From Pseudomonadota bacterium (GTDB lineage: Bacteria > Desulfobacterota > JADFVX01): 37,797 nt of DNA. The position numbers and the translations under genes were made by a program. Numbering within the stretch: the stretch's first letter is position 1; the number at the start of each line of letters is the position of its first letter. The notes beneath the pieces are model-generated. The model saw only the letters and a program-made list of their open reading frames with translations. It ran no database searches and was not told where the DNA came from. Location: assembly GCA_015222755.1 (NCBI GenBank), contig JADFVX010000075.1:1-37797 (forward strand). Reading direction: 5' to 3'. This document shows positions 99-30,543 of the stretch, in pieces.

Positions 99-899
99 TC
101 AATACTGTCCAAGTGTTCCCGAAACCTTTGCACGCTGTGTGGCCACCGTAAAGGTCCACAGTCCCAATGGGAACAGAATCAGAGCAAAGAGCATCAAGGC
201 AGTTAGTTCTGGTAGGAGCTCCATAGGGCTTGCGCCCAAGAGGATCGCTTTGCGGATTCCGGCCAGTGCGTGCGTGAACGGGAAAAACTGGGCAACAGTT
301 TGCAATGGTGCCGGCAGAACACTTATCGGATACAGAACGCCACTTAAGACAACCGTTGCGCCTGTGAGGATCGTGGTTGCGATCTCGCCGCGCTTGATGG
401 TCAGTGTGAGACTTGCTGTCAGAATCCCGAGTGCTGCGAAACTCAGGATGGCAAGGGACATAGACAGTAAAAACGATAGAATGTTAGCGTGGCTCAAATC
501 GAGCCCGAAAAACAAGCCTGTTAACAAGTAGACCATGAACCGTAAGGATGTAAATACGTAACCCCAAAGGGAAGAATAGAGAAGGATGACTGAAACCGGC
601 GTCGGCGAAAGCATAACGATCTCAAGGGTACCCATCATCTGGTGTTCCCGGATGCTCGTGTTAAAAGAGGAGAGGCTGATCGTCGTATAGTCCTGGAATG
701 CTATGCCGAGCAGGAGAAACGGGAAATACACTCCGCCGTATGGCTTGAGGGAGGCAGATTCGGCACCTCCGAAGACCTGGGTGACATAGAAAAGAACCGG
801 CACAAAAAAGGCGATCCCGACCAGCTCTATCACTAAAGCGCCACGGTAGCTGATTTTCAGCAGGAAATCCCTACGTATAAAGGCCCAAGCCAAACGCAT
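99..899 (-). CDS. ABC-2 type transporter permease
   Basis: 266 aa with about 6 hydrophobic segments; 'REHQMMGTLEIVMLSP' and 'LSGVLYPISVLPAPLQTVAQFFPFTH' are typical ABC-2 membrane motifs; 1-bp overlap with the ATPase gene. Confidence 0.9.
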   Translation of the reverse strand: MRLAWAFIRRDFLLKISYRGALVIELVGIAFFVPVLFYVTQVFGGAESASLKPYGGVYFPFLLLGIAFQDYTTISLSSFNTSIREHQMMGTLEIVMLSPTPVSVILLYSSLWGYVFTSLRFMVYLLTGLFFGLDLSHANILSFLLSMSLAILSFAALGILTASLTLTIKRGEIATTILTGATVVLSGVLYPISVLPAPLQTVAQFFPFTHALAGIRKAILLGASPMELLPELTALMLFALILFPLGLWTFTVATQRAKVSGTLGQY

Positions 900-1909
900 T
901 ACAGCTTACCTCCAGTGGAAGATGAGATAATACGGCTGAATATCTCCTGTAGTGAAGCGGACACCTCACTACAGTGTGTGACCTCGCCACCACCGGAGAG
1001 TAAGGTGCGGAGGACATCCGATATAACACCGTTCCTACCGCTTAGCGTTATTTCAAGATGGGTAATCCCTTCGTGTCGTGAACTTTGGACCCCTACGATA
1101 TCTCTCATTCCCTCAATTACCTCCAGGCAACCTGGCTGAAGTTTGCTTACTATGAGCCTATACGACTTGTCCGTTGAGACGCTCTGACTGAGTTCATAAA
1201 TTGTTCCGCAGTGAAGGATCCTGGAGCGGCCCATAATGGCAACCTTGGTGCACAACTGCTCTATCTCCTTCATGTTGTGCGAGGTCATTATGACCGTGGG
1301 ACTCCATAAGGCCATGATCCGCTCCCGGATCAGGTGGATAAGTTCAGTTGATGCGAGTGGATCAAGCCCTTTGGTTGGCTCGTCCATAAAGATAACACTC
1401 GGCCGGTGCAGCAGCCCTCTGGCGAAAGCAAAACGTTGGCGGATACCGGTAGAGTAGCTATCGAACCTGCGATCAGCGTAGGGCCGGAGGTCTAAGACGT
1501 CAAGCAGCTCTTCTATCCAACTTTCGCTTTCCCGATGGGAAATATGATAAAGGTTGGAGAAGAAATGCAGGTTCTGTCTTCCCGTTAACCGCCAGTAAAA
1601 GCTGCGCTCGTTACTTGTTACAAGTCCGACAAACCGCCGGACATCTGAAGCCTCCGTCAACACATCCTTATCACCTACCCACGCCGAACCAGATGTGGGA
1701 ATAATGAGCGTACAGAGGATATTAATGAGGGTCGTCTTGCCGGCCCCGTTCGGCCCCACCAGTCCCAATATCTCGCCCTTATCTACAGTCAGTGATACAC
1801 GATCGAGCGCAACGACCTCTTCGGTGTTCTTCCGTTCTCTATGGAACGATGAGAAGAGGGCGGTATTGGGGTAGACCTTGACAACATCCTTTAACTCAAT
1901 AGCCTTCAT
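899..1909 (-). CDS. ABC transporter ATP-binding protein (ABC-2/DrrA-like exporter)
   Basis: Walker A GPNGAGKTT, signature YSTGIRQR, Walker B IFMDEP, H-loop TSH. Confidence 0.95.
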   Translation of the reverse strand: MKAIELKDVVKVYPNTALFSSFHRERKNTEEVVALDRVSLTVDKGEILGLVGPNGAGKTTLINILCTLIIPTSGSAWVGDKDVLTEASDVRRFVGLVTSNERSFYWRLTGRQNLHFFSNLYHISHRESESWIEELLDVLDLRPYADRRFDSYSTGIRQRFAFARGLLHRPSVIFMDEPTKGLDPLASTELIHLIRERIMALWSPTVIMTSHNMKEIEQLCTKVAIMGRSRILHCGTIYELSQSVSTDKSYRLIVSKLQPGCLEVIEGMRDIVGVQSSRHEGITHLEITLSGRNGVISDVLRTLLSGGGEVTHCSEVSASLQEIFSRIISSSTGGKL

Positions 1910-2047: not shown

Positions 2048-3238
2048 TCATGAGGAGGGTTCCGGTACGTAGCTGTCACTGCCGTTGACGACCTGCTCAT
2101 ACACCGCCTCTGTAAGCTCGGCATACCGGTCCCATGAGTACAGCTCGGCGGTCTCTCTACATCTTTTACCTATACTCTTACCCAACTCTGGATTCTCCAT
2201 GAGAGTGCGGATCCTCTCTGCCATCTCATTGACATCCCACGGGCAGCCAACGACAAAACCGTTATGGCCATCCCGTATCACCTCGTCTCCGAATGCGACA
2301 GTTCGCGCAGTAACAACGGGAAGCCCTGATGCCATAGCTTCCAAAACAACAAGCCCAAACGATTCATACAAACTTGGAAAAAGCAGCGCATCGACCGCAC
2401 CGTAGTAACGCCAAACCTCCCGGTCCTGGCCGACAAATACAACACGACGTGACAGCATTAGACCTTCAAGCAAATCCTGAGAACCGGGAATACTTTTGGG
2501 GTCTCCGGCCCCAACAACAACAAGGACTGCCTTCTCAGGAAGGCGGGCAATGGTCTCTATAGCATAACGGACGCCTTTATAACGGAAATCGTTCCCGATA
2601 AAGAGGAGAAGAAACTGGTCATCTCGAAATCCGAGATCGGCCCTTGTCCTCTTCCGCCACTGCTTAACCAACTGTGGATGGAAAAGATCAAGGTCAACCC
2701 CGTTGGGAATGACCGGAACCTCCTCTGGCTGCCGCCGACTAAAGCTGACGACTTCCTGCCGTACCCGCTCTGTTACGGCTGTAATCAATGTCTTTCGGTG
2801 CAAAATGTGATAACTAAACAGCAGTAGCTGTATGTAGTCGATAAGTATCCGCCGATACAAAACGTCCCTGCGCGGTCTGCTCGGGAAGCGCCGCATGCTC
2901 CGGAAGGCTGACAGAAAAACACCGTGAGAGGTAAGCACCTGCGCCGGTAACAACACAGGAGCATGAAGGTGGACCACGTCAAAGCACTCACGTTTCACCT
3001 CTGTGCGAACCCGTAGAATGAACTCACACTCAGCCGGATATTGTCGACGAAAGCGCAAATCTATCTTGTGAACGTTGACTCCTTCCGGAGGTGATTGCTC
3101 AAAGGCACTGGCAAATATATGAACCTCATGGCTGGAAACCAGACGGTTTGCCAACTCCACTACGCACCGACTGACGCCCTCATACGTATTATAGCTCCAT
3201 GTCACCAGTGCAATCTTCACCGGCGTTTTTCCCTGCAC
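2048..3238 (-). CDS. Glycosyltransferase family 4 (GT-B)
   Basis: EX7E motif ESFGLVVLEAMASGLPVV, 'VIPNGVD', 'KG' motif, C-terminal 'YSW...Y'; GTG start. Confidence 0.93.
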   Translation of the reverse strand: MQGKTPVKIALVTWSYNTYEGVSRCVVELANRLVSSHEVHIFASAFEQSPPEGVNVHKIDLRFRRQYPAECEFILRVRTEVKRECFDVVHLHAPVLLPAQVLTSHGVFLSAFRSMRRFPSRPRRDVLYRRILIDYIQLLLFSYHILHRKTLITAVTERVRQEVVSFSRRQPEEVPVIPNGVDLDLFHPQLVKQWRKRTRADLGFRDDQFLLLFIGNDFRYKGVRYAIETIARLPEKAVLVVVGAGDPKSIPGSQDLLEGLMLSRRVVFVGQDREVWRYYGAVDALLFPSLYESFGLVVLEAMASGLPVVTARTVAFGDEVIRDGHNGFVVGCPWDVNEMAERIRTLMENPELGKSIGKRCRETAELYSWDRYAELTEAVYEQVVNGSDSYVPEPSS

Positions 3239-4473
3239 TGAACAGATCCATCATCTCCACCAGATATTACGCGCTTTAGGCGATGGTAAACCAGTCGCAC
3301 CAAAGCCGTCAAACCGCCCTCTGACGCTACTGAGAGGGCCTTATGGACTCTTGGCAACCTTCGCTCCATCCACGGAAGCAAGACAAAAAAGAACCATCGT
3401 AAATAAAATGCATGCAAAGACCGTTTTGACACAACAAGTCGCGTGTTTTGCCGCGCATCCGTTGTCCAGTCGCCCTTATAGGTCTCATCGCCTCGGAGAA
3501 AATCTATTTCGTCATCCCCGGAAAGCCAGTAATGCTCGAGCATACGTAACATTAGAAGCTTCCCCACCCCTAATTCTCTAAACTCATCAAGATATGAAGA
3601 CATGTAAGTGTAATGTCGCCTGTTATACCGGAACCCGAGGTAATAGGCGACTGCCCTACCGTCACACTCCATGAGGGCTATATTCAGCCATCCAAGCATC
3701 GCAAATTGTGGAAAAACATCCTCGAAAAACTTCCTATATGCATCCGTATTGAGTTGTCCCGGACGACCTCGTTTGACATCCGGATGATGTCGTTCCATTT
3801 CTGCCATTATATCAAGTAACCCTGGTTCATCTTCAAGAGATGTCACGAACCGAAGGCGTATATCTCCTCCAGCTTTTAGATTGCGCCATTCACGTTTATG
3901 CTCTTTCCTCCTTCGGTTTTTGAAACGGCTTTTGTAGTAATCCTCCCAGTCACCCTCTATGTGAATAAATCTACAGATATTATCTAACCCCATAGATCGT
4001 GCGAAACCAGCATTTTCAATAAGCCCCTCAAGAACAGACCTATTTGGTGAAGCACCATAAAAATCTCTTAGCTCGATCATGTCCCACTCAACGGTGTAAC
4101 CGGCGAGATGCCGGACAATATTCTGAAGCATCGCGTCTCTGCTCTCTGCAATGATGAAATCAGAGTAGTCCGAGACCCCGTGTCCCAAAAACCGCACTAT
4201 GCGTGCCGATATACCTAAGAACCTTTCTTCTTCTATAAAGAAGGGGGCAATTCCACAGAGCCTTCCTCGTATGCGCAGCGCAAGCACAAAGAGTTCAGAT
4301 CGTTTAAGAGAACTCTGAGGGCGGCCGAAGTGGCGCCACCAGTACGCGACCCACTCATGAGTCATGAAGAGCATGTTGCTATCACTCCGCTCAAGCAGTT
4401 CGTTCCAATCGTTCTTAAGAGACAATAGATTCTCTTCGCTACGCACCTCTTCTACAACAATATCTTCCGCCAT
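3217..4473 (-). CDS. GNAT family N-acyltransferase (CelD/BcsL-like, Acetyltransf_6)
   Basis: N-terminal 'LKNDWNELL...FMTHEW..WW.HF', 'GIAPF', 'SDYSDFI', 'WEDY', C-terminal 'GVGKLL...IDFLRGDETYKGDW'. Confidence 0.85.
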   Translation of the reverse strand: MAEDIVVEEVRSEENLLSLKNDWNELLERSDSNMLFMTHEWVAYWWRHFGRPQSSLKRSELFVLALRIRGRLCGIAPFFIEEERFLGISARIVRFLGHGVSDYSDFIIAESRDAMLQNIVRHLAGYTVEWDMIELRDFYGASPNRSVLEGLIENAGFARSMGLDNICRFIHIEGDWEDYYKSRFKNRRRKEHKREWRNLKAGGDIRLRFVTSLEDEPGLLDIMAEMERHHPDVKRGRPGQLNTDAYRKFFEDVFPQFAMLGWLNIALMECDGRAVAYYLGFRYNRRHYTYMSSYLDEFRELGVGKLLMLRMLEHYWLSGDDEIDFLRGDETYKGDWTTDARQNTRLVVSKRSLHAFYLRWFFFVLLPWMERRLPRVHKALSVASEGGLTALVRLVYHRLKRVISGGDDGSVQCREKRR

Positions 4474-4570: not shown

Positions 4571-6538
4571 TCAAAGAGAGCACAGTATCTCCAGATTCCT
4601 ATCGTTTTGCTCAGGGCGGGCGATCGGGAATATAATATAGCGATCCTTTAACACCCCTCTGGATAAAAAGATTCCTTCTTCTTCAAATGCGCTATAGACC
4701 TTCTCCGGCGGTATCGGGGTCTCTACCAGCATGAAATGAATCTCGCTCGGAAGATAGTCAAGTCCCGCTGAGGCCAAGCGCTTCTGGATGCGCACCCTCT
4801 CCCGATTCGTATTCTCTAATATCCGGGTTGCATACTCCTTGTCTTCGAGAGCAAGAATGGCCGCCGACTCTGCAATAGGCGACAAGGCAAAAAGTGGCTC
4901 AAGCCGATTAAAAAGTTGTAACGCCTTTGGTGAAGCAAAAGCATAACCAATTCGCAAAGCAGCTAGTCCGTAAAATTTAGAGAATGTTCTTAATCCGATA
5001 ACAAGCCGGTCGGTTTCACCTATTATCTCATTAGTACGCAAGGTTTGTGGGTTTGTACTAAACTCGATATATGCCTCATCCACTACAACGGGGATATGCG
5101 CCGGAATGCGTTGAAGAAAATGCATAAATTCATCCCTGTCTATACCGACACCCAGCGGATTGCTGGGATTTATAAGATAGATTAGACGTGTATTAACAGT
5201 GATTTCCCCTGCCATAGTGTCAAGATCAAAATGAAACCTCCCATTGGTCTTTTTAAATGGGACACTGCGATTCACCACACCTAAAGCGGCACAGTATCGA
5301 TCAAACATGAACCATCCTGGGGCAGTAGTAAGAGCCTCTTTGCCTGGAGGAACAAAGGTCCGGACAGCACGTTCAACCAACTCTGAAGACCCGTTTCCAA
5401 AAGTAAAACAATCCTCTGAAATTTCAAGGTGTTCGCTCAGTTTTTTTCTGAGTGATGGATATCGCTCATCAGGATAACGCGCAAAGTTGGCATCATTTGC
5501 CATACGAGTCAAAAGACCACGAACACTTTCAGGCATCCCATAACAATTCTCAGCTCGGTCAAAGCAAACGATATCAGGATCAAGCCGATTTATGACTTTA
5601 TCGTCTTTCTTAAGAGGTGGAAAAACCATACGATCCAGCATTGTGAGAGGACTTGTCAATATTGTCTCTATTTCTCTATCTTTCTCTAACCCCCAAGCTG
5701 ACAGAATCCGTCCATGGATCTGGATTCCCGGTACTGAAGCCATATAGAGAAACAGAGGAACCACTGTCTCAGGTGGTGAAAGGGTCAGAAAATAATCCAG
5801 TGAAAAAAACGATTTTGACATTTCGGTTTGCAATGAGCCAAGCTCAATACCCGCTACAGTTATGTTGTTCCATCCTGCATCAAGCGCCGTAGTACTTGTC
5901 AAAGATTCAAGTCCACATTTACTCACAATGTAAGGGGACATTTTCGGCATTTGTGTATGAGTTGCTCCTGTAGAAACATTAATAATACGTCCTGAAACTC
6001 CATTGTTCATCATCCAGGTAGCAACTAATCTTGAGCAGAGAAAAGCCCCGGTAATGTTGACTGCCATTACTTCCCGCCACTCTTTGGGTGTTATCTCCCA
6101 TACATGGCTCTTGCATGGGCCCAGTAAAGCCGCATTGTTAATTAATATATCAATTCTGTCAAACTCTCTAATGGCCGTGTCAACCAACTGCTGTGCACCC
6201 GCATCTTCAGAAATGTCTGCACATATGCCGGTTGCAGTACCTCCTGCCTTTCTTATTTCCTGAACAGCCTGATCCACAGCACCTTTAGACCGTCCGTTCA
6301 CGACAACCTTGGCCTTTGCATCAGCAAAGGACTTGGCAACGGCCAAACCTACACCTCTGGTAGATCCCGTTATAACAACAACTTGCCCACTAATATCCTT
6401 CCGGGATGTATCTTCCTTAATATGTTTAAGTACCTTGGTAATTTCATCTGGTTCAATTAGACGCGTCCACAGATGTAGTACTCGGCTTACAACACGTCTT
6501 ATTATCCAGCTAAGCTTTCTAGTAATCCTATTACTCAT
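4571..6538 (-). CDS. Fusion: short-chain dehydrogenase/reductase + HisC-like PLP-dependent class I/II aminotransferase
   Basis: SDR: TGSTRGVG, NNAA, YIVSK (YxxxK). Aminotransferase: GNGSSE, NPSNP, DEAY, RTFSKFYGLAALRIGY with the PLP lysine. Single uninterrupted 655-aa frame. Confidence 0.88.
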   Translation of the reverse strand: MSNRITRKLSWIIRRVVSRVLHLWTRLIEPDEITKVLKHIKEDTSRKDISGQVVVITGSTRGVGLAVAKSFADAKAKVVVNGRSKGAVDQAVQEIRKAGGTATGICADISEDAGAQQLVDTAIREFDRIDILINNAALLGPCKSHVWEITPKEWREVMAVNITGAFLCSRLVATWMMNNGVSGRIINVSTGATHTQMPKMSPYIVSKCGLESLTSTTALDAGWNNITVAGIELGSLQTEMSKSFFSLDYFLTLSPPETVVPLFLYMASVPGIQIHGRILSAWGLEKDREIETILTSPLTMLDRMVFPPLKKDDKVINRLDPDIVCFDRAENCYGMPESVRGLLTRMANDANFARYPDERYPSLRKKLSEHLEISEDCFTFGNGSSELVERAVRTFVPPGKEALTTAPGWFMFDRYCAALGVVNRSVPFKKTNGRFHFDLDTMAGEITVNTRLIYLINPSNPLGVGIDRDEFMHFLQRIPAHIPVVVDEAYIEFSTNPQTLRTNEIIGETDRLVIGLRTFSKFYGLAALRIGYAFASPKALQLFNRLEPLFALSPIAESAAILALEDKEYATRILENTNRERVRIQKRLASAGLDYLPSEIHFMLVETPIPPEKVYSAFEEEGIFLSRGVLKDRYIIFPIARPEQNDRNLEILCSL

Positions 6539-6580
6539 AATACTTTTCCTTATTCTAATTTTGGGTAAAACCAGCCTTAC
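6490..6580. repeat. Copy A of a diverged ~90-bp direct repeat (GNAT 3' end / SDR-aminotransferase 5' end junction)
   Basis: Hand alignment to 10169-10257 gives about 70/90 identities with a 2-nt gap and a shared exact core TAGTAATCCTATTACTC. Confidence 0.8.
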
Positions 6581-7724
6581 GATAACCTTGTATTTTTCTT
6601 TTTATCTCTTCAAAACAGTTAATTATACTTGAATACAAATGATTGTTATAAACCACAAGCTGTTCAAACCCTCTTATCTCAGATGCCCATCTTTCAGAGA
6701 ACATGATACGCCCAACAAAATCCAAGCCGTTCAACTCACTTTCCCATATATCTTTAAAGATATGAGCAATGAGCGTTGAACCAGGTGAACAGGCATTTGA
6801 AGCAAACTTTTCTTTAGAAGATGTTTTAATCGTATATAAAGTCCTATCATCACGTAGGCATAGAAAAGCTGAAGCGGGTTCCCCTGAAACCCGCAGAACC
6901 CATATCTGACAGTGGCTCTTCTTAACACACTGCCTTGCCAGATCCGCATAGTAAGCGCCTATCGTTGTATTTAAGGCAAGGCTTTCTCCGGCCCTTGCTT
7001 TCCAACTTTCACCATCGATCTCCATGAACAGCCGTAATCCAATATCGATTGTCTCAGGCTTATCAAAACACTCCACCCTTAAAGCCCCCATAATTTCAAG
7101 AGAACGCTCCGAACGACGCATCTGCTGACGAAAATTCCTGCTCTTTTGTGCAAGATACTGTTCCCATGTTCCATCAAAAGCAATGTATGAATGATGCCAA
7201 GGTGAACTCTCGTAAGTCTTTAACCCCATTCGAGTAATTTCATTGCGAAATGCAGCTATAACTCCAGATCTTTGGGAAATACCATCCAGCAGCATGACAT
7301 CCCAAGCTTTGCTCTTTGATAAAAAGTTAACTATAGCAGCAATTGCTTCCTTGGGGTTACATGTCAGTACGATTCCACTACGCGGTGCATGACTGTTCAG
7401 TGGAGGCGCCAGTATCCGTGCCGGACATCTTCTCCATTGCCCCCTAAGCAAAATCAATGGAGCAATACCTATAAGCTCGCCTTTATCCCGCACCAATATA
7501 ACATGCAGGCGTGCATCCTTCCCACCGATGCCGATCAGATTGTGGTCGTCATGAAGCTCATGAGTGCTACGTTCTGTGCCATTCCCAAAGTGTTCCCACC
7601 AGTTCAGGAACCAATCAAAGCTTGTAAAGATATCAGCGGTAGAATCCTTTATCCAAAGAGTTTCCCAAGCCTCCTCCAAGGCCCGCAACCCATCCATGGT
7701 TTCGATCAACTCAACATTTAACAT
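6555..7724 (-). CDS. GNAT family N-acyltransferase (CelD/BcsL-like, Acetyltransf_6)
   Basis: 'LEEAWETLW..IFTSFDWFLNWWEHFG', 'GIAPL', 'WEQYLAQKSRNFRQQMRR', 'SWK', 'SPGSTL'; paralog of 3217..4473. Confidence 0.85.
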   Translation of the reverse strand: MLNVELIETMDGLRALEEAWETLWIKDSTADIFTSFDWFLNWWEHFGNGTERSTHELHDDHNLIGIGGKDARLHVILVRDKGELIGIAPLILLRGQWRRCPARILAPPLNSHAPRSGIVLTCNPKEAIAAIVNFLSKSKAWDVMLLDGISQRSGVIAAFRNEITRMGLKTYESSPWHHSYIAFDGTWEQYLAQKSRNFRQQMRRSERSLEIMGALRVECFDKPETIDIGLRLFMEIDGESWKARAGESLALNTTIGAYYADLARQCVKKSHCQIWVLRVSGEPASAFLCLRDDRTLYTIKTSSKEKFASNACSPGSTLIAHIFKDIWESELNGLDFVGRIMFSERWASEIRGFEQLVVYNNHLYSSIINCFEEIKRKIQGYRKAGFTQN

Positions 7725-7883
7725 ACTAATACCTTCCCGAATGCTGTGACCATAGCCAATGGTGAAGTTCTCAACTTAACCTTGTTTGAATCCTCGGAGC
7801 AAGTTTCAAAGAACCATTCTTCCTCTCACTACTAAACATACAATACGTCGCAGCGCATATGATCTTATAAATTGCACACCCCA

Positions 7884-9980
7884 TTAAAAGGCCGTTTCTT
7901 TTTTAACGTCATTTTCAACTTTATACAAGAGTCCTATAACGCACCAAAGTGTCTTTGTTAATAGAGCAGTTCCAAGAGATTCATATATATGGGAGACTTT
8001 CTCATATATTAAGGTCACCGCTGTCTTTAATAGACTTTTCGATTGAATAACCCTCTTTAAAAAGCTTCGTAATTTATTTGAATGCCTATACGTCAATGTT
8101 CCTGCCGGGCAAACTTGAAGAAAGTTCTTGTAAGCATTTGTTGGATAAACCGCTAAACTAAGGTACTTCCCACTAACATTCATTATAAGCCGCTTATCAA
8201 TAAGTCTTTGTATCGATAATTTGAGATCACTTTCTGCCACATCTGCCTTGAAATAATCAAGTATTTTAGAGAGTTTTTGTGCTTTGTCACAATATTCATA
8301 AATACTGCGGTCAATACCGGTTAAACGGATCCATATTTGTTGACGACAAGATCGAGTGTCTATTATGATCAAGCTTTTCTTTCTAGGGATGGCAACTAAA
8401 TGTGATCTAGGATAGGCCTTGCACCAATTGGAAGTAGTTTTTTTTAATCTCTTGAATATTTCACCTTTCAATTTTGCTTTCAAGAAATCAGATTGGTAAT
8501 AACAAGCAAGTTTTTTTAGCGATTTATATTCAAATGGATACACGTGTTTATAAGGTGTTGGTACGGAAACAGGTACTAAACCGTATTGCTCTGGGTCTTC
8601 AAAATATGGGCTGAAACGATCCAGGTGAATTACAGCTGTATTGGCAGGGGGTTGCAGGTGGTGAATCATCTCGCATATTTCGTCTATCTTTTCAGATTCG
8701 TTCTTTTCCTCAGGGAAGCCACAGAGGTGGTTCCACATAACGAAAACACCCAATTCAGTACTCCACTTAATCAATTGGATATTCTGAACAGCAGTAGTCC
8801 CTTTCTGCATAAGCTGCAGAGAATGATCACTAAGGCTTTCAATGCCCGGTTGAATCATCCTTATATTTGCCTCTGCCAACATTTTGACTTGCTCTTTAGT
8901 CAAATTAGCTTTAGTTTCACAAACAAGTTCAGCAATTGGGTTAGCTGCAAGCCGAGGAATGACTGTTTTAAAATAGTTCATATCAAGTATGCTATCAACC
9001 AACAAAACCCTGCCTATGCCATACTTTTTGACTAAATCATTCAATTCATCTAATATACGTTGCGGGGATTTACTTCTGAAGGCAATCCCTTCACCATTCA
9101 ATCCGCAAAAAGTACACTTCTTTTTTTCTCCCCACCAACAACCCCTGGAGCTTTCCATAACTAAACCAGGGACAATTTGATTTTTGAAACTGGCAGCATC
9201 AAGCTGATCAAAGTAGTCATCAAAATCTGGATAGGGCAGATCATCCAAAGTCTCACTACCGAGCGAAGTTGAAGAATCGGCAAGCGGTTGAGCCATTCTC
9301 GTAAGAATACCCGGCACGTATCGTTTACCGTCGTCATACTGTAATGACCTTAGTAGTTCCACAAATGATTTATCACCTTCACCCTGTCCAATGTAATCTA
9401 TATAGTTGAAGCATGAAAATAGTTCTTCCCCCATTTCAGACTCACAATTTCCGCCACCCATCATAGTAATGATGTTAGGATTTCTATCCTTGATCAGCTT
9501 GATTAGATAGACCGCTCCACAGTTCTGCTGAAAACTTGAGGTTACTCCAAGCACCCATGGTTGACGGGTTAATATTTTTTCAACTTCATTTTTGTAACAA
9601 TCATAAGCTTTTTTTATGAGATGAAGAACAATCTCTGAGAGACTTTTGTCGGGAAAATGTTCTATAAGTGAATGTATCTCATTATCCTCTTGAAGAACTT
9701 CCTTAACATACTGCTCCACAGCCCTTTCATTTCGTTCAAACAGCAAATGTGAAAATATAAACTCACCTAGCAACTGCCCCATAGGCTTATCAGTGATCCA
9801 TTCATGCAGGTAGGGACCAATATGCTCTGCAAAACGCAAATTCAGATAAATCAGTTCTGTCGGAAAACCTTCTTTTTCTGCCGCTGCCTTCAGCAGGCTT
9901 ACACCTAGAGATGGGCGATTTATCGAATGAAATGGCGGAATAACGAGAAAAACAGGTTTTATTTCTTCATTGTTACACAT
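7884..9980 (-). CDS. B12-binding radical SAM C-methyltransferase, RiPP-maturation family (TIGR03975/PoyC-like)
   Basis: N-terminal B12-binding region (PPF...RPSLGVSLLKA, GGGNCE, GEGD); ESSRGCWWGEKKKCTFCGLNG = CX7CX2C; ETKANL, QPGIESLS, WN..GFP.E, HLQPP, RFSPYF are family motifs recognised by eye. Confidence 0.9.
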   Translation of the reverse strand: MCNNEEIKPVFLVIPPFHSINRPSLGVSLLKAAAEKEGFPTELIYLNLRFAEHIGPYLHEWITDKPMGQLLGEFIFSHLLFERNERAVEQYVKEVLQEDNEIHSLIEHFPDKSLSEIVLHLIKKAYDCYKNEVEKILTRQPWVLGVTSSFQQNCGAVYLIKLIKDRNPNIITMMGGGNCESEMGEELFSCFNYIDYIGQGEGDKSFVELLRSLQYDDGKRYVPGILTRMAQPLADSSTSLGSETLDDLPYPDFDDYFDQLDAASFKNQIVPGLVMESSRGCWWGEKKKCTFCGLNGEGIAFRSKSPQRILDELNDLVKKYGIGRVLLVDSILDMNYFKTVIPRLAANPIAELVCETKANLTKEQVKMLAEANIRMIQPGIESLSDHSLQLMQKGTTAVQNIQLIKWSTELGVFVMWNHLCGFPEEKNESEKIDEICEMIHHLQPPANTAVIHLDRFSPYFEDPEQYGLVPVSVPTPYKHVYPFEYKSLKKLACYYQSDFLKAKLKGEIFKRLKKTTSNWCKAYPRSHLVAIPRKKSLIIIDTRSCRQQIWIRLTGIDRSIYEYCDKAQKLSKILDYFKADVAESDLKLSIQRLIDKRLIMNVSGKYLSLAVYPTNAYKNFLQVCPAGTLTYRHSNKLRSFLKRVIQSKSLLKTAVTLIYEKVSHIYESLGTALLTKTLWCVIGLLYKVENDVKKETAF

Positions 9981-10168: not shown

Positions 10169-10257
10169 CAATACGCTTCATTACCCAACGAAGTTTTATA
10201 GTAATCCTATTACTCGCAATATTTCCTTACTATAGTTTTGAGTAAAACTATCTTTAC
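10169..10257 (-). pseudogene. Copy B: relic of the GNAT 3' end / SDR-aminotransferase 5' end, start codon lost
   Basis: Translates (A)SNRITIKLRWVMKRIGE* versus MSNRITRKLSWIIRRVVS at 6538; ATG replaced by GCG. Confidence 0.7.
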
Positions 10258-10390
10258 CCTGAAGTCACGGATCCAGGATATTAATAGGAAAACTGCTTCA
10301 AGTGTACGGAAGTTATTGCTCCAGTGAGGATCGACCACTGAAGATGAAATATCCGCTTATTCAGTTTTAGAAGCCATAATGTAGCTATAT

Positions 10391-11185
10391 TCACGGCGTA
10401 ACTATGAAATTGGACCTACTGTCTTTGCCTGAGAGCACATCCTCTGCTTCCGGGTAAAGGATAATACCCGTTTCCAATGTTACTATCGGGTTGAGTACCG
10501 TCGCTAAATGATTGAAGAATCGATCAACCATAGCAACGTTACTGAGCGATACATAGAGAACATCACCTCTCTGAAGGTAGGCATTGTGCAATGCCAACTC
10601 ATTCTTTCCGGGTGCTTCCGATGTCAGGACTATCGGTTTTGATTGGCCATCCTTTTGTCTTCTCATAAGTACGACCTTCTGTTTTTTTGCATCGCGGTTA
10701 AATCCACCTGCAGAGCCAATTGCCTCCATTGCCGTCATCGGGCCATCGAGAAGGTAAACTCCCGGCCTGTTTACCTCCCCAAGGACATAAATCTTCTGCG
10801 ATCTTGCATTCTTCACCTGAACAGTCACCTGGGGATTGCGAAGATACTCAGATAATCCTTTGGTAAGCGCAGATTGAAACTCTGTTAGACTCATACCAGA
10901 CGCCTTAATTGCCCCAGCCAGTGGCAGCTGAACCGTCCCATTAGTTTGCACCTTGACTTCACGATTTATATCATCATGACGCCAAACTTGAATGTCCAAA
11001 GAATCGCCGGGGCCTATGATATATTCAGTTAACCGAATGGCTGGGATTTCGATTTGTTCCTGATGTTCCTGTACAATTGTTTGTTTTTGGCCCGGAGTTG
11101 TGCAACTCAGCAGGAAAGAAAAAAACAATATCCACAACTGGATGCTTTTCGATTTTATTATCTTTCCTTCCCGATTATTGTCCAT
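10391..11185 (-). CDS. Polysaccharide biosynthesis/export lipoprotein (Wza/OPX family)
   Basis: Lipobox LLSC; 'YIIGPGDSLDIQVW', 'GTVQLPLAGAI', 'YLRNPQVTV', SLBB 'VLGEVNRPG...AIGSAGG', 'LQRGDVLYV'; C-terminal amphipathic helix. Confidence 0.9.
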   Translation of the reverse strand: MDNNREGKIIKSKSIQLWILFFSFLLSCTTPGQKQTIVQEHQEQIEIPAIRLTEYIIGPGDSLDIQVWRHDDINREVKVQTNGTVQLPLAGAIKASGMSLTEFQSALTKGLSEYLRNPQVTVQVKNARSQKIYVLGEVNRPGVYLLDGPMTAMEAIGSAGGFNRDAKKQKVVLMRRQKDGQSKPIVLTSEAPGKNELALHNAYLQRGDVLYVSLSNVAMVDRFFNHLATVLNPIVTLETGIILYPEAEDVLSGKDSRSNFIVTP

Positions 11186-11259: not shown

Positions 11260-13032
11260 CTATTTTGCCCCAACTCCCTTTATTACAGCCATTATTGTCT
11301 TTAAAAATATTTTCATATCCATTTTAAAGGACTGGCTCTTTACATAGGCGATATCGTATCTTATCCAGTCGTGGAACGATGTATCACTCCTGCCGTTTAC
11401 CTGCCATAGCCCAGTTATACCCGGCTTTACATTGAGCCTTATATCTCTCCAGCTGGGAGCAAATTTCATCTCCTCCATAACCAATGGTCTCGGTCCGATC
11501 AAGCTCATGTCGCCATTTAATACATTAAATAACTGTGGAAGTTCATCAAGACTTGTCTTCCTTAAGAACGTGCCCACCTTTGTGAGTCTTGGATCTCTAT
11601 CCATCTTGAACATTGGACCGTCGACATCATTCTCTTTCAAGAGTTTTCCTTGTATCTCGTCAGCATCTTCAATCATTGTTCTGAACTTATACATGGGGAA
11701 TTCCTGCCCGTCTTTACCGCACCTTCTCTGGCAGAAAAAAACATGTCCGCGCGAGTCCCTCTTTATAAGCAATGCGATAAAAGTAAACAGCGGCAGCAAA
11801 AAAAGCAATCCCAACAAGGAACAAATTATATCCAACAACCTTTTGGCAACAAAAAAGAGCTTGTGTTTCAATAGATTGCGTAATCTTGGCCCTGGAATAC
11901 TCATATTGAAAACGGTTTTTAAATCTTTATCATCATTAAGATTAGAAGAGACAAAGTTCAGAATACCATCACAGCTCTTATCCTGAACTACAACGGCATT
12001 TCTGACAGTTTCATCCTCTGAAACAACGCAGGACTCTCCAACAAGGCTATATTCGACACGGGACTTATTCATCAAACATGCATTTTCAAGTATTATGCTC
12101 TCGTGCACCAGAACATCATTTCCTATGTTTGATCCGCTGCCTATAGTTGAAGGCCCTATCACTTTCGAATTACCTTCTATGATACAATTGTCACCGATGA
12201 TAGCCGGCCCCAAAAGATAAGCATCCTGCGATATTTTGACATTCTTCCCAACCCAAATGCGATCACCGAACTTTTTCCAGGAACAAAATGTTTTATTGTG
12301 CTTATCCAGGCCATTCAAAAGGAGTTCCCGGTTCAGCTTAAAATAACCTGTAAGGCTATTGATTTTTATCGTCTTTGTTTCTGTCTTGTAAGTATGTACC
12401 GGAATCCCTTTAGCATTCAGGATCGGAACAAGCTGTTCCTTAATATCCATATAGCCTGTTTCCGGTATGTAGCCCAACATATCCGGCTCAAATACATATA
12501 TTCCAACGGGTCTTATATAGTGACGGTTGTCCCTTGAATGGTGGAGTATATGGAATCTTTTAACAGTTCCGTCTTCACCGACTTCAATGCGCTCAAGATC
12601 TCTCCTCCCTGGATTGTCTTCTTCTACAACTACTGTTGCCCCTGACTGCCTGCTTGTATGAAAATCTAGAATTTTAGATAAGTTCAGACCTTCAATGAAG
12701 ACATTGGAACAGATAACCCAGAATGGAGACCTTCCGAGAAAGTCTTTAAGTTCTTTTAATGACCCTGCTGTGCCTCTTGGGTAGTCCTCAAAAAAATAGG
12801 AGACCTTCACCCCTTTCGCCTCATAATTATTCAGTCTCTCGATTATATTGTCGATACTATCTATGTTACGTGGCAAGACGATGGCAACTTCCGTCACAGC
12901 ATTTTTTTTTAAAACATTTAAGTGGTGTACAAGTAAAGGAACATTACCCAAGGGCAAGGCTAACTTCGGGTAATAGTTCGCGAGAGGAAAGATTGCGCTT
13001 CCTGGACTTCCAGATAATATGACAGCCTTCAT
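11260..13032 (-). CDS. Fusion: sugar-phosphate nucleotidyltransferase-like domain + hexapeptide (LbH) repeats + monotopic phosphoglycosyl transferase (Bac_transf; PglC/WcaJ-like priming transferase)
   Basis: N-term MKAVIL..., PK..LP, PRGTAGSL; LbH repeats in the middle; C-term KRLLDI, GKDG..F.MYKFRTM, DPRLTKVGTFLRKTSLDELPQLFNVLNGDMSLIGPRP, KPGITGLWQVNGR. ATG at 13032 preferred over TTG at 13044. Confidence 0.88.
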   Translation of the reverse strand: MKAVILSGSPGSAIFPLANYYPKLALPLGNVPLLVHHLNVLKKNAVTEVAIVLPRNIDSIDNIIERLNNYEAKGVKVSYFFEDYPRGTAGSLKELKDFLGRSPFWVICSNVFIEGLNLSKILDFHTSRQSGATVVVEEDNPGRRDLERIEVGEDGTVKRFHILHHSRDNRHYIRPVGIYVFEPDMLGYIPETGYMDIKEQLVPILNAKGIPVHTYKTETKTIKINSLTGYFKLNRELLLNGLDKHNKTFCSWKKFGDRIWVGKNVKISQDAYLLGPAIIGDNCIIEGNSKVIGPSTIGSGSNIGNDVLVHESIILENACLMNKSRVEYSLVGESCVVSEDETVRNAVVVQDKSCDGILNFVSSNLNDDKDLKTVFNMSIPGPRLRNLLKHKLFFVAKRLLDIICSLLGLLFLLPLFTFIALLIKRDSRGHVFFCQRRCGKDGQEFPMYKFRTMIEDADEIQGKLLKENDVDGPMFKMDRDPRLTKVGTFLRKTSLDELPQLFNVLNGDMSLIGPRPLVMEEMKFAPSWRDIRLNVKPGITGLWQVNGRSDTSFHDWIRYDIAYVKSQSFKMDMKIFLKTIMAVIKGVGAK

Positions 13033-13062
13033 ACTACCACCCAATTTAGAGGAAAAACGTGT

Positions 13063-13119: not shown

Positions 13120-13467
13120 CTATAACAGTCTCAGGCCTGATGCATTTACCGATCTATCAATTTTTTTCGTCCACACGGTCTTTGCAGCTCTATGGATATC
13201 GAGATCATCAACGCTGACATGGAGATCAGTGTCAATGATCAAAAGTTCTCCCATATAAACAATCATTGCTCCATCATCTGAGTAATCTTCCATTGTTCCT
13301 GACCGTTTTTTGTTTTCTATTGAAAACAGAAAGTCTATCCCTGCTCTTGTTCTTTCTTGATGTCTGCCAATAAAAATACAACCGCAGTGGGGGCAGGGTG
13401 GACAACCCGCCTCGGAGTGAATATAAAAAGCTTTAAAGCACTCTGGGCAAAGCCTGATTTCTACCAT
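13120..13467 (-). CDS. Zn-ribbon + PilZ domain protein (putative c-di-GMP receptor)
   Basis: CPEC...CPHC followed by RHQER (RxxxR) and DYSDDG (DxSxxG), ending in V.W...GL, the canonical PilZ pattern. Confidence 0.8.
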   Translation of the reverse strand: MVEIRLCPECFKAFYIHSEAGCPPCPHCGCIFIGRHQERTRAGIDFLFSIENKKRSGTMEDYSDDGAMIVYMGELLIIDTDLHVSVDDLDIHRAAKTVWTKKIDRSVNASGLRLL

Positions 13468-13853: not shown

Positions 13854-14489
13854 TCATAAATTTTTCTGGTAAATATCATGGTTATTCAGTACATAAGTTA
13901 TCAATTGAGGCCTGTTTCTGACGTTCAGTTTCTGAAAGACACGGTGGAGGTGAGTCTTCACGGTAGGTTCACTGATATACAGTTTCTGGGCGATCTCTTT
14001 GTTCTTGAAGCCCTTACCGACTAGGGCCACAATCTCTTTCTCTCTTTTGGTAAGCATAGGGGATTTGCTGTTCTTCCTTATTGCGTTCATGCCGGTTATC
14101 AGATTTTTGACGGTTGACTTATCCAGCCACACCTCACCTCTTGCTACTGACCTGATGGACTTCATAAGGAGATCAGGTGGTGTGTTAGCCAGGATCAAAC
14201 CTTTTATTTCCTTTGAAATAACAGCAGAAATTATATTGTCTTCACCACAGCAGGTATCAAAGAGGATAAAATTAATACCGGGTGTTTCATCGAAATCAAC
14301 GAATACATTATAGAGAGCTGTAAGATCAACCAGAATTACATCCGGCTTCAAGGACTCTATGATTTTGCCAGGGCTGGCACCAACATCCAGGATTCCTACA
14401 ACCTCGATATCACCTACATCCTCAAACAGTCGGAGCACACCCTCTGAAAATAGTGAGTTACTGAAAACTATCAGCACTTTAATGGACAT
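13854..14489 (-). CDS. LuxR/NarL-family response regulator with atypical receiver (CsgD/VpsT-like architecture)
   Basis: C-terminal LTKREKEIVALVGKGFKNKEIAQKLYISEPTVKTHLHRVFQKL HTH; receiver 'PDVILVD'; ATG at 14489 preceded by a GGGAGG SD (ORF track start at 14540 less likely). Confidence 0.9.
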   Translation of the reverse strand: MSIKVLIVFSNSLFSEGVLRLFEDVGDIEVVGILDVGASPGKIIESLKPDVILVDLTALYNVFVDFDETPGINFILFDTCCGEDNIISAVISKEIKGLILANTPPDLLMKSIRSVARGEVWLDKSTVKNLITGMNAIRKNSKSPMLTKREKEIVALVGKGFKNKEIAQKLYISEPTVKTHLHRVFQKLNVRNRPQLITYVLNNHDIYQKNL

Positions 14490-14697
14490 ATACCTCCCCC
14501 TCTCCCGAAAAAGCAGTGTGAACTTGCAAAACTTCCACAATTCAAATCAAAAAAACAACTTTATATCATAAAAAATCCGTCGTTGCGAGATATATTGAGG
14601 GGATATTATTCTTATATCACTATTGTCTGATTAACTTTTAAACGACACTAGCTAACTCAGGGAAAACAGTTTTTTCACAATTACTTCAGCATCTAAC

Positions 14698-29876: not shown

Positions 29877-30407
29877 CTAATCGTTAATTATTATATCAAC
29901 ACCGATATCGCCTTCAAGGGAAGCCTTGATCACATCGTTTGGCGAAGTAGGTATGTTCTTTCCAACAAAATCTGCCCTTATAGGCAGTTCCCTGTGGCCC
30001 CTGTCTATGAGCACGGCCAGTTTTATCATCTTGGGACGGCCGAAGTCTATGAGTGAATCCATGGCTGCCCTGACAGTCCTACCGGTGTAGAGTACGTCAT
30101 CTACTAAAACAAGCTTTTTATCGTCTACAGAAAAATCTATTTCCGTGCTTCGCAGGGCAGGATGGTGTGTGCCGGCAGAAAGATCGTCGCGGTAGAGGGT
30201 TATATCTACGATCCCCAGGGGAACGTCGAGGCCTTCTATCTTTTTTATCTCCCTGGCCAGCATCTGAGAAACTATGACGCCTCCACTTCTTATTCCAACA
30301 AGCGCAAGGTCACCGATGCCCATGTTTGCCTCAAGTATTTCATGAGCAACCCTTGTGACGGCCCGTTGAACGCCAAGGGCATCTAGAACCTGCTTTTGTT
30401 TAGCCAT
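29877..30407 (-). CDS. pyrR: Bifunctional pyr operon regulator / uracil phosphoribosyltransferase PyrR
   Basis: [43 protein letters not shown]. Confidence 0.97.
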
Positions 30408-30416
30408 AGTGTACCT

Positions 30417-30453
30417 AAAAAAAACCTCTCTGCCCGAAATAGGTAGAGAGGTT
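30417..30453 (-). terminator. Attenuator terminator of the pyr leader
   Basis: AACCUCUCUACC-UAUUUCG-GGCAGAGAGGUU hairpin (one mismatch) running into a U8 tract just before the pyrR SD. Confidence 0.85.
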
Positions 30454-30520
30454 CTGTGACAAATTTAGATTTGCTTGATCCATGAGTCCCTTATTAATCT
30501 CACAGGATTAATTTAAAGGT
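30417..30520 (-). ncRNA. PyrR-binding attenuator leader RNA
   Basis: CCUUUAAAUUAAUCCUGUGAGAUUAAUAAGG (30489-30519) matches the PyrR binding loop (CCUUUAA...ARUCCNGNGAG...AAGG), followed by the terminator. Confidence 0.85.
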
Positions 30521-30543
30521 AAATATTTGTGATTTCGTGAGTT

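Follow-up and report, generated by a model that had tools for sequence, protein, structure and literature searches.

In characterised relatives within TIGR03975, the family of radical S-adenosylmethionine (SAM) C-methyltransferases of ribosomally synthesised and post-translationally modified peptide (RiPP) maturation, residues of ribosomal peptides are C-methylated, and a winged helix resembling the RiPP recognition element (RRE) is expected to bind their leader peptides. PoyC is presumably one such member, given the name of the model. GenK, GenD1/GntE, MoeK5 and Fom3 act on sugars or small molecules rather than peptides. These enzymes are named among the class B radical SAM methyltransferases in Fig. 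12 of PMC12931638. PoyC is described in PMC5682303 as a B12-dependent enzyme that methylates valine at C-beta and yields 5'-deoxyadenosine and S-adenosylhomocysteine (SAH), and an unconventional Cx7Cx2C motif is reported there for PoyB, PoyC and the bottromycin methyltransferases. Contig JADFVX010000075.1 of assembly GCA_015222755.1 (a Pseudomonadota bacterium, placed by GTDB in the Desulfobacterota) was analysed over positions 1 to 37,797; this whole stretch of 37,797 nucleotides is referred to as the window. The window contains at 7884-9980 (-) an intact open reading frame (ORF) of 698 aa, here the rSAM gene, encoding P0001, and AAGGAG sits 8 nt 5' of its ATG. It is judged somewhat probable that P0001 is a C-methylase of the (amino)acyl or amino-sugar part of a glycan, from a rare clade recruited into cell-surface glycan biosynthesis.

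P0001 scored 603.1 bits against TIGR03975 (cut-off 281.85), with residues 10-611 aligned to profile positions 1-606 of 606, and the match was confirmed on the genome. The initial annotation, made from the sequence alone, had proposed this comparison and had described a RiPP-maturation B12 radical SAM enzyme directly behind wza, with a CX7CX2C motif, a B12-binding N-terminus and a C-terminal winged-helix-like segment. The rSAM gene does lie 410 nt downstream of a Wza-type gene carrying Poly_export and SLBB domains. The motif was found as C281, C289 and C292, within RGCWWGEKKKCTFCG, and all three columns were invariant in alignments of 21 and of 104 sequences. Pfam Radical_SAM was matched by residues 276-431 (E 8e-14). 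The winged helix was recovered in structural models (below). For the B12-binding N-terminus the support was divided: the Pfam B12-binding score of 26.9 bits is under the cut-off of 32.1, and a putative cobalamin-binding domain is therefore assigned from membership of the family and from the resemblance of its fold to solved cobalamin radical SAM enzymes. The NCBIfam models of other class B families gave P0001 only 22-79 bits, and a Protein Atlas search returned nothing beyond the known family.

A full-length AlphaFold2 model was calculated from the 104-sequence alignment, with a mean predicted local distance difference test score (pLDDT) of 94.1 and a predicted template modelling score of 0.93. 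Its best solved fold matches were all cobalamin radical SAM enzymes, namely OxsB (top match, E 6e-16, TM 0.50), TokK (E 1e-13), TsrM, CysS (E 4.5e-12) and MgmA, with a match probability of 1.00 for OxsB, TokK, TsrM and CysS. By sequence (phmmer against the PDB) only TokK was matched, over residues 157-315 (E 4e-7). AprD4, which acts on an aminoglycoside sugar as a diol dehydratase, was also among the fold matches (E 1.5e-9). Together with OxsB in first place, the sub-threshold B12-binding score and the presence in the B12-domain radical SAM class of members with other or unknown transformations (PMC12931638), this match would suit modification of the glycan or its precursor by non-methylating radical chemistry, that is epimerisation, dehydration, ring contraction or C-C bond formation. 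We regard such chemistry as very unlikely, as P0001 exceeds twofold the cut-off of a family named for C-methyltransferases, has the Cx7Cx2C motif common to PoyB/PoyC and the bottromycin methyltransferases (PMC5682303) and scores far below the cut-offs of the other class B families.

Searching a 90%-clustered database with P0001 gave a score list of 7,949 matches. P0002-P0082 scored 488-729 bits and were mostly 680-735 aa in length, and the next matches scored at most 453 bits and were mostly 620-650 aa. In a FastTree phylogeny of 135 rows, with rows of less than 600 aa left out, P0001-P0083 and six locus-encoded proteins were separated from the other sequences by a branch of length 0.38 with a Shimodaira-Hasegawa-like support of 100; all 12 comparison loci fell on the other side of this branch. 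On the alignments P0001 is thereby placed in a distinct clade of TIGR03975. The initial annotation had suggested that members associated with exopolysaccharide might form their own clade, and both this tree and the neighbourhoods described below, which are of glycan and not of RiPP type, agree with it. The clade is rare: after 50% clustering about 9 representatives of 476 bits or more were present among 3,001 with E <= 1e-30. Named sources were two Planctomycetota metagenome-assembled genomes (MAGs), one Phycisphaeraceae MAG and one KSB1 MAG. No clade-level relative was found in 400 other genomes of the window's phylum, where all three matches had 35% identity, and none in 401 genomes from the phylum to which G403 belongs; the latter search had no separate positive control. 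A scan of genomes for related loci gave at least one clade member, locus L003, and the 166 other genomes of its phylum gave 1 further match.

Clade loci were also retrieved from metagenomes utilizing a clade-specific pattern that recognised 56 of the 82 proteins of the clade and none of 38 from outside it; 9 loci were returned. One candidate, L086, was rejected as a chance match in GC-rich DNA, having no tblastn match to P0001. Nine distinct clade loci were compared: the window, L003, L097, L089, L094, L088, L087 (its near-copies L090 and L091 counted once), L093 and L092. The Planctomycetota members are not among these. Within the available DNA, glycan genes were present at 8 of the 9; L092, where there were none, is too short to inform.

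At L003 (KSB1) the rSAM gene is preceded by a GT4 glycosyltransferase, a methyltransferase, a PIG-L deacetylase, a second GT4, a condensation-adenylation-methyltransferase-peptidyl carrier protein module and a sulfatase-family gene; the rSAM gene is followed by genes for a phosphodiesterase, a second sulfatase-family protein, a UbiA-HAD protein, an FAD oxidase, a short-chain dehydrogenase/reductase (SDR) and an arylsulfotransferase. At L097, from a second KSB1 genome, a GT2-sulfotransferase, two GFO oxidoreductases, a DegT aminotransferase, a hexapeptide-GT2 protein and a PMT_2 protein precede the rSAM gene. At L089 it is preceded by genes for a polysaccharide deacetylase, an Acetyltransf_6 protein, an acyl-CoA dehydrogenase, an amino-acid adenylation enzyme and, adjacent to it, an 81-aa carrier protein, and followed by those for a GT4, a hexapeptide transferase, a phosphodiesterase and two hydrolases resembling exosortase-A-associated ones. 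L094 has a GT4, the rSAM gene and then an Acetyltransf_6 gene whose product is a full-length homologue (27% identity, E 4e-41) of the Gcn5-related N-acetyltransferase (GNAT) encoded at 6555-7724 in the window. The order rSAM gene, FemAB-like GNAT thus recurs at L094, and a homologue of the GNAT is also near the rSAM gene at L089. A PIG-L gene adjoins the rSAM gene at L088; at L087 and L091 a free condensation domain and a GDSL hydrolase are encoded upstream and a deacetylase, an acyl carrier protein (ACP), two ketosynthases and a GT2 downstream; L093 has a GT2, and also a WbuX-like N-acetyl-sugar amidotransferase whose 133 bits fall short of the cut-off. Counted by step, an amino-sugar function is represented by a deacetylase in 4 clade loci and an aminotransferase in 2. 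For amine acylation, 3 loci have a GNAT, 2 have a hexapeptide transferase and 3 have genes of the adenylation, carrier or condensation type. Read from the predicted gene functions, the recurring theme is that an amino sugar would be made and its amine then acylated.

A further radical SAM gene, one belonging to the STM4011 family, was observed at 4603-5667 (+) of L087, 2 kb from the clade rSAM gene, and again in L090 and L091; at L003 the sulfatase-like gene at 7979-9838 (+) beside the rSAM gene has a weak STM4013-family match. STM4011/STM4013-like genes may be a recurring companion set near the clade rSAM gene.

In a uniform test, phmmer was run with 20 glycan-pathway proteins, taken from clade loci, against six-frame ORFs of all loci, ignoring matches to the query's own locus. 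Glycan matches were obtained at 7 of 9 clade loci, compared with 7 of the 78 loci elsewhere in the family (Fisher p = 1.8e-5, a value that is only a guide because related loci are not fully independent). An NCBIfam scan of the 81 ORFs lying up to 3 kb from the family gene at 12 ordinary loci found no glycosyltransferase. Several of the ordinary loci hold RiPP-type genes, with two NHLP precursors and LanM at L060, a SagB dehydrogenase at L057 and a second B12 radical SAM gene at L006 and L032, as well as subtilisin-like proteases, kinase-TPR proteins and an M16-type peptidase. L060 itself (G402, a Kiritimatiellae MAG, contig C6, 227.9-235.1 kb) carries three tandem TIGR03975 paralogues with the two NHLP precursors and a LanM-type synthetase, and looks like a proteusin/lanthipeptide-type hybrid cluster. 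Since the clade sits in clusters for surface sugar polymers with no peptide partner, P0001 probably decorates a polysaccharide.

The adenylation and carrier genes seen above bear on the form of the substrate. The amino acid or acyl group might be modified while bound to a carrier protein, ahead of its transfer to the glycan, in parallel with CysS and TokK, which take pantetheine-linked substrates; the RRE-like domain would then dock the carrier. The L089 adenylation enzyme is above its cut-off (TIGR01733, 380 bits) and the carrier protein next to it has an IDSMG motif; the module at L003 is one gene from the rSAM gene; and the ACP, ketosynthases and free-standing condensation domain recur at L087 and L091. 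Solved CysS and TokK entries also contain pantetheinylated ligands, according to their titles. A carrier or adenylation gene was not visible in the window, where the operon is truncated, nor at L094, L097 or L093, and tethering to a carrier is considered unlikely for P0001.

Precursor genes were sought around the rSAM gene. The initial annotation had reported only peptides of 22 aa or less in the nearby gaps, which does not hold: a 37-aa ORF with an ATG start is present at 7771-7884 (-), and GTG-started minus-strand ORFs of 42 aa (10210-10338) and 37 aa (10281-10394) are present in the upstream gap. None of the three has a counterpart beside relatives, and among small ORFs of 20-130 aa lying up to 900 nt from the rSAM gene, none was common to different clade loci at E <= 0.01. 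The ORF at 7771-7884 is probably not a gene, to judge from these comparisons; it has cysteines at positions 3, 10 and 15. The expectation that this TIGR03975 member has no recognisable precursor was otherwise upheld: beside homologues no conserved small ORF was found, and elsewhere in the genome no precursor of Nif11 or NHLP type. Precursor models for Nif11 (TIGR03798) and NHLP (TIGR03793) had 0 matches in three clade-bearing genomes (G000, G401 and G465); each of the positive controls, G572 and G402, gave two. The lack of such matches is weak evidence, because only 1 of 12 ordinary family loci gave a recognised leader. Pfam and NCBIfam scans of the operon found no peptidase, peptidase-ABC or other RiPP tailoring gene; the ABC-2 pair is the sole transporter, in agreement with the initial annotation on the missing peptidase-ABC. 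The contextual hallmark of TIGR03975, a RiPP precursor with adjacent tailoring and export genes, is thus absent around P0001, in an operon that is truncated and a genome that is 86% complete.

The C-terminal domain was examined in the full model and in a separate model of residues 490-698 (pLDDT 82). In both, DSSP assigned three strands, three helices and a hairpin to residues 526-608. The C-terminal model was compared with 48,161 chains utilizing VIA-align and matched winged helices at Z 7-9. RRE-bearing matches (TigE, Z 8.3; TbiB1 with leader peptide, 7.9; lasso B1, 7.4; MibB, 7.4; CteB, 7.3) were tied with generic winged-helix regulators such as MecI (Z 8.8). Pfam PqqD did not match the C-terminal domain of P0001, and at E <= 0.5 over the aligned region it matched 0 of 18 clade proteins vs 3 of 14 non-clade relatives. 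Judged from the models, an RRE origin of the P0001 winged helix is likely. The stretch that follows the winged helix is a median 85 residues long in the clade, compared with 26 outside it; clade tails have a median net charge of +11, and a hydrophobic window resembling a membrane span occurs in only 2 of 82. In the full model the P0001 tail contains helices at 634-646 and 650-697 (pLDDT 75-96). We tentatively propose, with rather less than even confidence, that the clade has left ribosomal peptides and that, in several phyla, its enzymes add C-methyl branches to the (amino)acyl or amino-sugar groups decorating exported glycans, the leader-binding domain having been repurposed or blocked by the basic tail.

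Several points weigh against a glycan role. The RRE-like domain has been kept, and D541 and R543 within it are invariant across clade and non-clade members. The start of the ORF at 7771-7884 overlaps the rSAM stop codon (TAATG). The operon ends at the contig end, where, at the genome completeness given above, a precursor could be unseen, and leaders are easily missed at the recognition rate of the ordinary loci. Methyl transfer is assigned to P0001 from the family name only, and with a B12-binding score below its cut-off cobalamin binding itself is putative. No single partner is common to all clade loci, and for this reason the exact substrate may differ between them. Four of these observations (the retained domain, the coupled ORF, the truncated operon and the ease of missing a leader) would be expected if P0001 were an ordinary RiPP methyltransferase whose precursor was not recognised, being the 37-aa ORF or a gene beyond the contig end or elsewhere, with the polysaccharide neighbourhood incidental. 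That is distinctly unlikely in view of the glycan genes at 8 of 9 clade loci and the result of the uniform test. No small ORF is common to the clade loci, the overlap of the rSAM stop with the GNAT start at L094 leaves no space for a peptide gene between them, the operon carries no RiPP processing gene, and Nif11/NHLP precursors were missing from the clade-bearing genomes with the controls working. The initial annotation had offered three possible kinds of substrate: sugars, amino acids linked to a glycan, and proteins whose genes lie elsewhere; gene context favours the first two, and a peptide or protein may still be the target, given the RRE-like domain, the unseen operon end and the 37-aa ORF.

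The genes from 14540 to 99 are all on the minus strand, in the order LuxR/GerE, PilZ-like, nucleotidyltransferase/priming fusion, Wza, rSAM, GNAT, SDR-aminotransferase, second GNAT, GT4 and the ABC-2 ATPase and permease, so that the rSAM gene stands within a polysaccharide gene array. The co-oriented priming transferase, GT4, ABC-2 permease and ATPase and Wza between 99 and 13044 make this an ABC-transporter/outer-membrane polysaccharide export (OPX)-dependent locus. The downstream part of the operon is cut off, as the window begins at a contig end. Coordinates are given in the table.

Features of the rSAM protein and of the surrounding operon in the window (positions in nucleotides; residues are those of P0001)
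Feature	Position	Strand	Evidence
B12-type radical SAM enzyme P0001, 698 aa, glycan-associated clade of TIGR03975	7884..9980	-	TIGR03975 603 bits; model pLDDT 94.1; tree
N-terminal Rossmann-type cobalamin-binding-like domain, ~residues 10-250	9231..9953	-	Pfam hit below cut-off; alternating strands and helices in model; OxsB/TokK/TsrM fold matches
Cx7Cx2C iron-sulfur cluster motif, C281/C289/C292	9105..9140	-	invariant alignment columns
Radical SAM core, ~residues 270-470	8571..9173	-	Pfam Radical_SAM E 8e-14
RRE-like winged-helix domain, residues 526-608	8157..8405	-	DSSP of both models; VIA-align
Clade-specific basic C-terminal tail, residues 611-698: conserved aromatic...PGG motif, then two helices	7887..8150	-	tail comparison; full model
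37-aa ATG ORF coupled to rSAM stop	7771..7884	-	no similar small ORF beside other clade members
LuxR/GerE-type regulator, head of operon	13854-14540	-	GerE E 4e-20
PilZ-like 115-aa ORF, head of operon	13120-13467	-	PilZ 22.7 bits vs cut-off 22.5
Sugar-1-phosphate nucleotidyltransferase and LbH fused to priming polyprenyl-phosphate sugar-phosphate transferase (Bac_transf)	11260..13044	-	Bac_transf E 2e-68
Wza/OPX-type outer-membrane polysaccharide export lipoprotein	10391..11185	-	Poly_export and SLBB; LLSC lipobox
FemAB-like GNAT (Acetyltransf_6), conserved rSAM neighbour	6555..7724	-	Pfam E 8.5e-24; homologues at L094, L089
Classical SDR fused to HisC-type class I/II aminotransferase	4571..6538	-	profile matches
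Second FemAB-like GNAT (Acetyltransf_6)	3217..4473	-	Pfam E 3e-29; paralogue of 6555-7724
GT4 glycosyltransferase	2048..3238	-	Glycos_transf_1 E 5e-34
ABC-2 type exporter, ATPase 899-1909 and permease 99-899, without peptidase domain	99..1909	-	DrrA-like ATPase; weak KpsM match for permease

The borderline PilZ match and the LuxR/GerE-type regulator at the operon head give a hint of cyclic di-GMP control of the polymer. In the 594-aa ORF at 11260-13044 (-) a GlmU-like nucleotidyltransferase, LbH and Bac_transf are joined, and sugar activation and lipid priming would reside in one protein. The SDR part of the fusion at 4571-6538 (-) resembles FabG and glucose dehydrogenase, and its aminotransferase part is of HisC type, not the DegT type usual for amino sugars; the fusion suggests an oxidise-then-transaminate step on an unusual substrate. 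A search of solved structures by sequence with the GNAT gave no match. A third match to Acetyltransf_6 (PF13480) in the genome (L101; G000 contig C56, 328-1023 (-)) was considered as a continuation of the operon and rejected, being an arginyl-tRNA-protein transferase (ATE_N/ATE_C) beside glycolysis genes; to judge from this match, the Pfam model also picks up an aminoacyl-tRNA-dependent transferase. Between 7600 and 10500 promoter-like sites were at chance level and no terminator was found, and an Rfam scan gave no credible riboswitch or other RNA in the 410-nt gap 5' of the rSAM gene.

GC content is 37-44% at 5-15 kb and about 50% in the flanks. This, with an rSAM gene that has no clade-level relative in the 400 other genomes of the phylum, is consistent with acquisition of the polysaccharide locus as an island. 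The remainder of the window is housekeeping (recG, ppnN, greA, carAB, pyrBC). The only RNA found in a scan of the whole window was a PyrR site (RF00515) at 30417-30523 (-), which scored 56.9 bits (gathering score 54). A phosphoribosyltransferase-type pyrR-like gene (29877-30407) and pyrB, pyrC, carA and carB lie just downstream of it.

The following order of steps is proposed from gene content. A sugar would be activated and loaded on polyprenyl phosphate by the fused nucleotidyltransferase/priming transferase, and the lipid-linked sugar would be extended by GT4. The SDR-aminotransferase would supply the amino function, a role that de-N-acetylases may take in other clade loci, and the FemAB-like GNATs would N-acylate or aminoacylate the amine, as adenylation, carrier-protein or condensation enzymes may do elsewhere. 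The rSAM enzyme, itself cytoplasmic, would then utilize a 5'-deoxyadenosyl radical and methylcobalamin for placing a methyl group on an unactivated carbon of the (amino)acyl substituent or of the amino sugar. Methylation is envisaged at the cytoplasmic face of the membrane before export, on the lipid-linked unit or on a carrier-tethered precursor, and the basic tail may serve to anchor the enzyme to the membrane or to an anionic intermediate. The polymer would finally be exported by the ABC-2 transporter and Wza.

If this is correct, C-methylation by radical SAM/cobalamin enzymes would reach beyond antibiotics and ribosomal peptides to the surface polysaccharides that bacteria export. Such polymers would be predicted to bear unusual decorations, either branched (amino)acyl groups or C-methyl sugars, and these could affect recognition of the polymers by phages, the immune system or enzymes. 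The clade would further be a natural experiment in how an RRE-bearing peptide enzyme switches substrate class. Genome-mining rules keyed to TIGR03975 would mislabel clade loci as RiPP clusters, which would be a concrete reason for false RiPP calls. In a metagenome study, antiSMASH clusters called by the TIGR03975 rule were set aside as likely false positives after manual inspection, with no reason given (PMC9426513); another study takes a TIGR03975 match as a RiPP marker (PMC12350317).

With respect to known systems, the XrtA/PEP-CTERM exopolysaccharide set was compared. L089 has look-alikes of the ligase TIGR03098, the hydrolases TIGR03100/03101, the deacetylase and the FemAB-like GNAT around its rSAM gene, and the Wza-type protein of the window resembles TIGR03027 (119 bits, under the cut-off of 180); all look-alike scores, at L089 and in the window, are below the equivalog cut-offs. 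Exosortase (PF09721) had no match in the window's genome (86% complete), and the locus was not assigned to the XrtA/PEP-CTERM set. A B12 radical SAM gene is not known to belong to its accessory genes. No paper on a TIGR03975-type enzyme in a polysaccharide locus was found in the literature covered, which lay outside subscription journals and supplements.

By analogy, the probable mode of action of P0001 is that of the class B methylases whose substrates are sugars and small molecules. Unlike P0001, however, GenK, GenD1/GntE, MoeK5 and Fom3 belong to other sequence families and to antibiotic pathways rather than to exported surface polysaccharides. Alternatively, P0001 may work like the carrier-dependent TokK and CysS. 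TokK (grouped with ThnK) and CysS are solved cobalamin radical SAM methylases with fold matches to the P0001 model; their sequence identity to P0001 is only 12-17% and their C-terminal domains differ. In architecture P0001 is like PoyC and PoyB, the C-methyltransferases of the polytheonamide proteusin, in its Cx7Cx2C motif, its putative B12-type N-terminal domain and its C-terminal winged helix of probable RRE origin, and the same chemistry would be expected by analogy, namely methylation of an unactivated sp3 carbon with formation of 5'-deoxyadenosine and SAH. Unlike PoyC and PoyB, P0001 falls in a separate clade, has an extra basic tail of ~85 aa and is encoded among glycan-pathway genes, without precursor, protease or RiPP partner genes.

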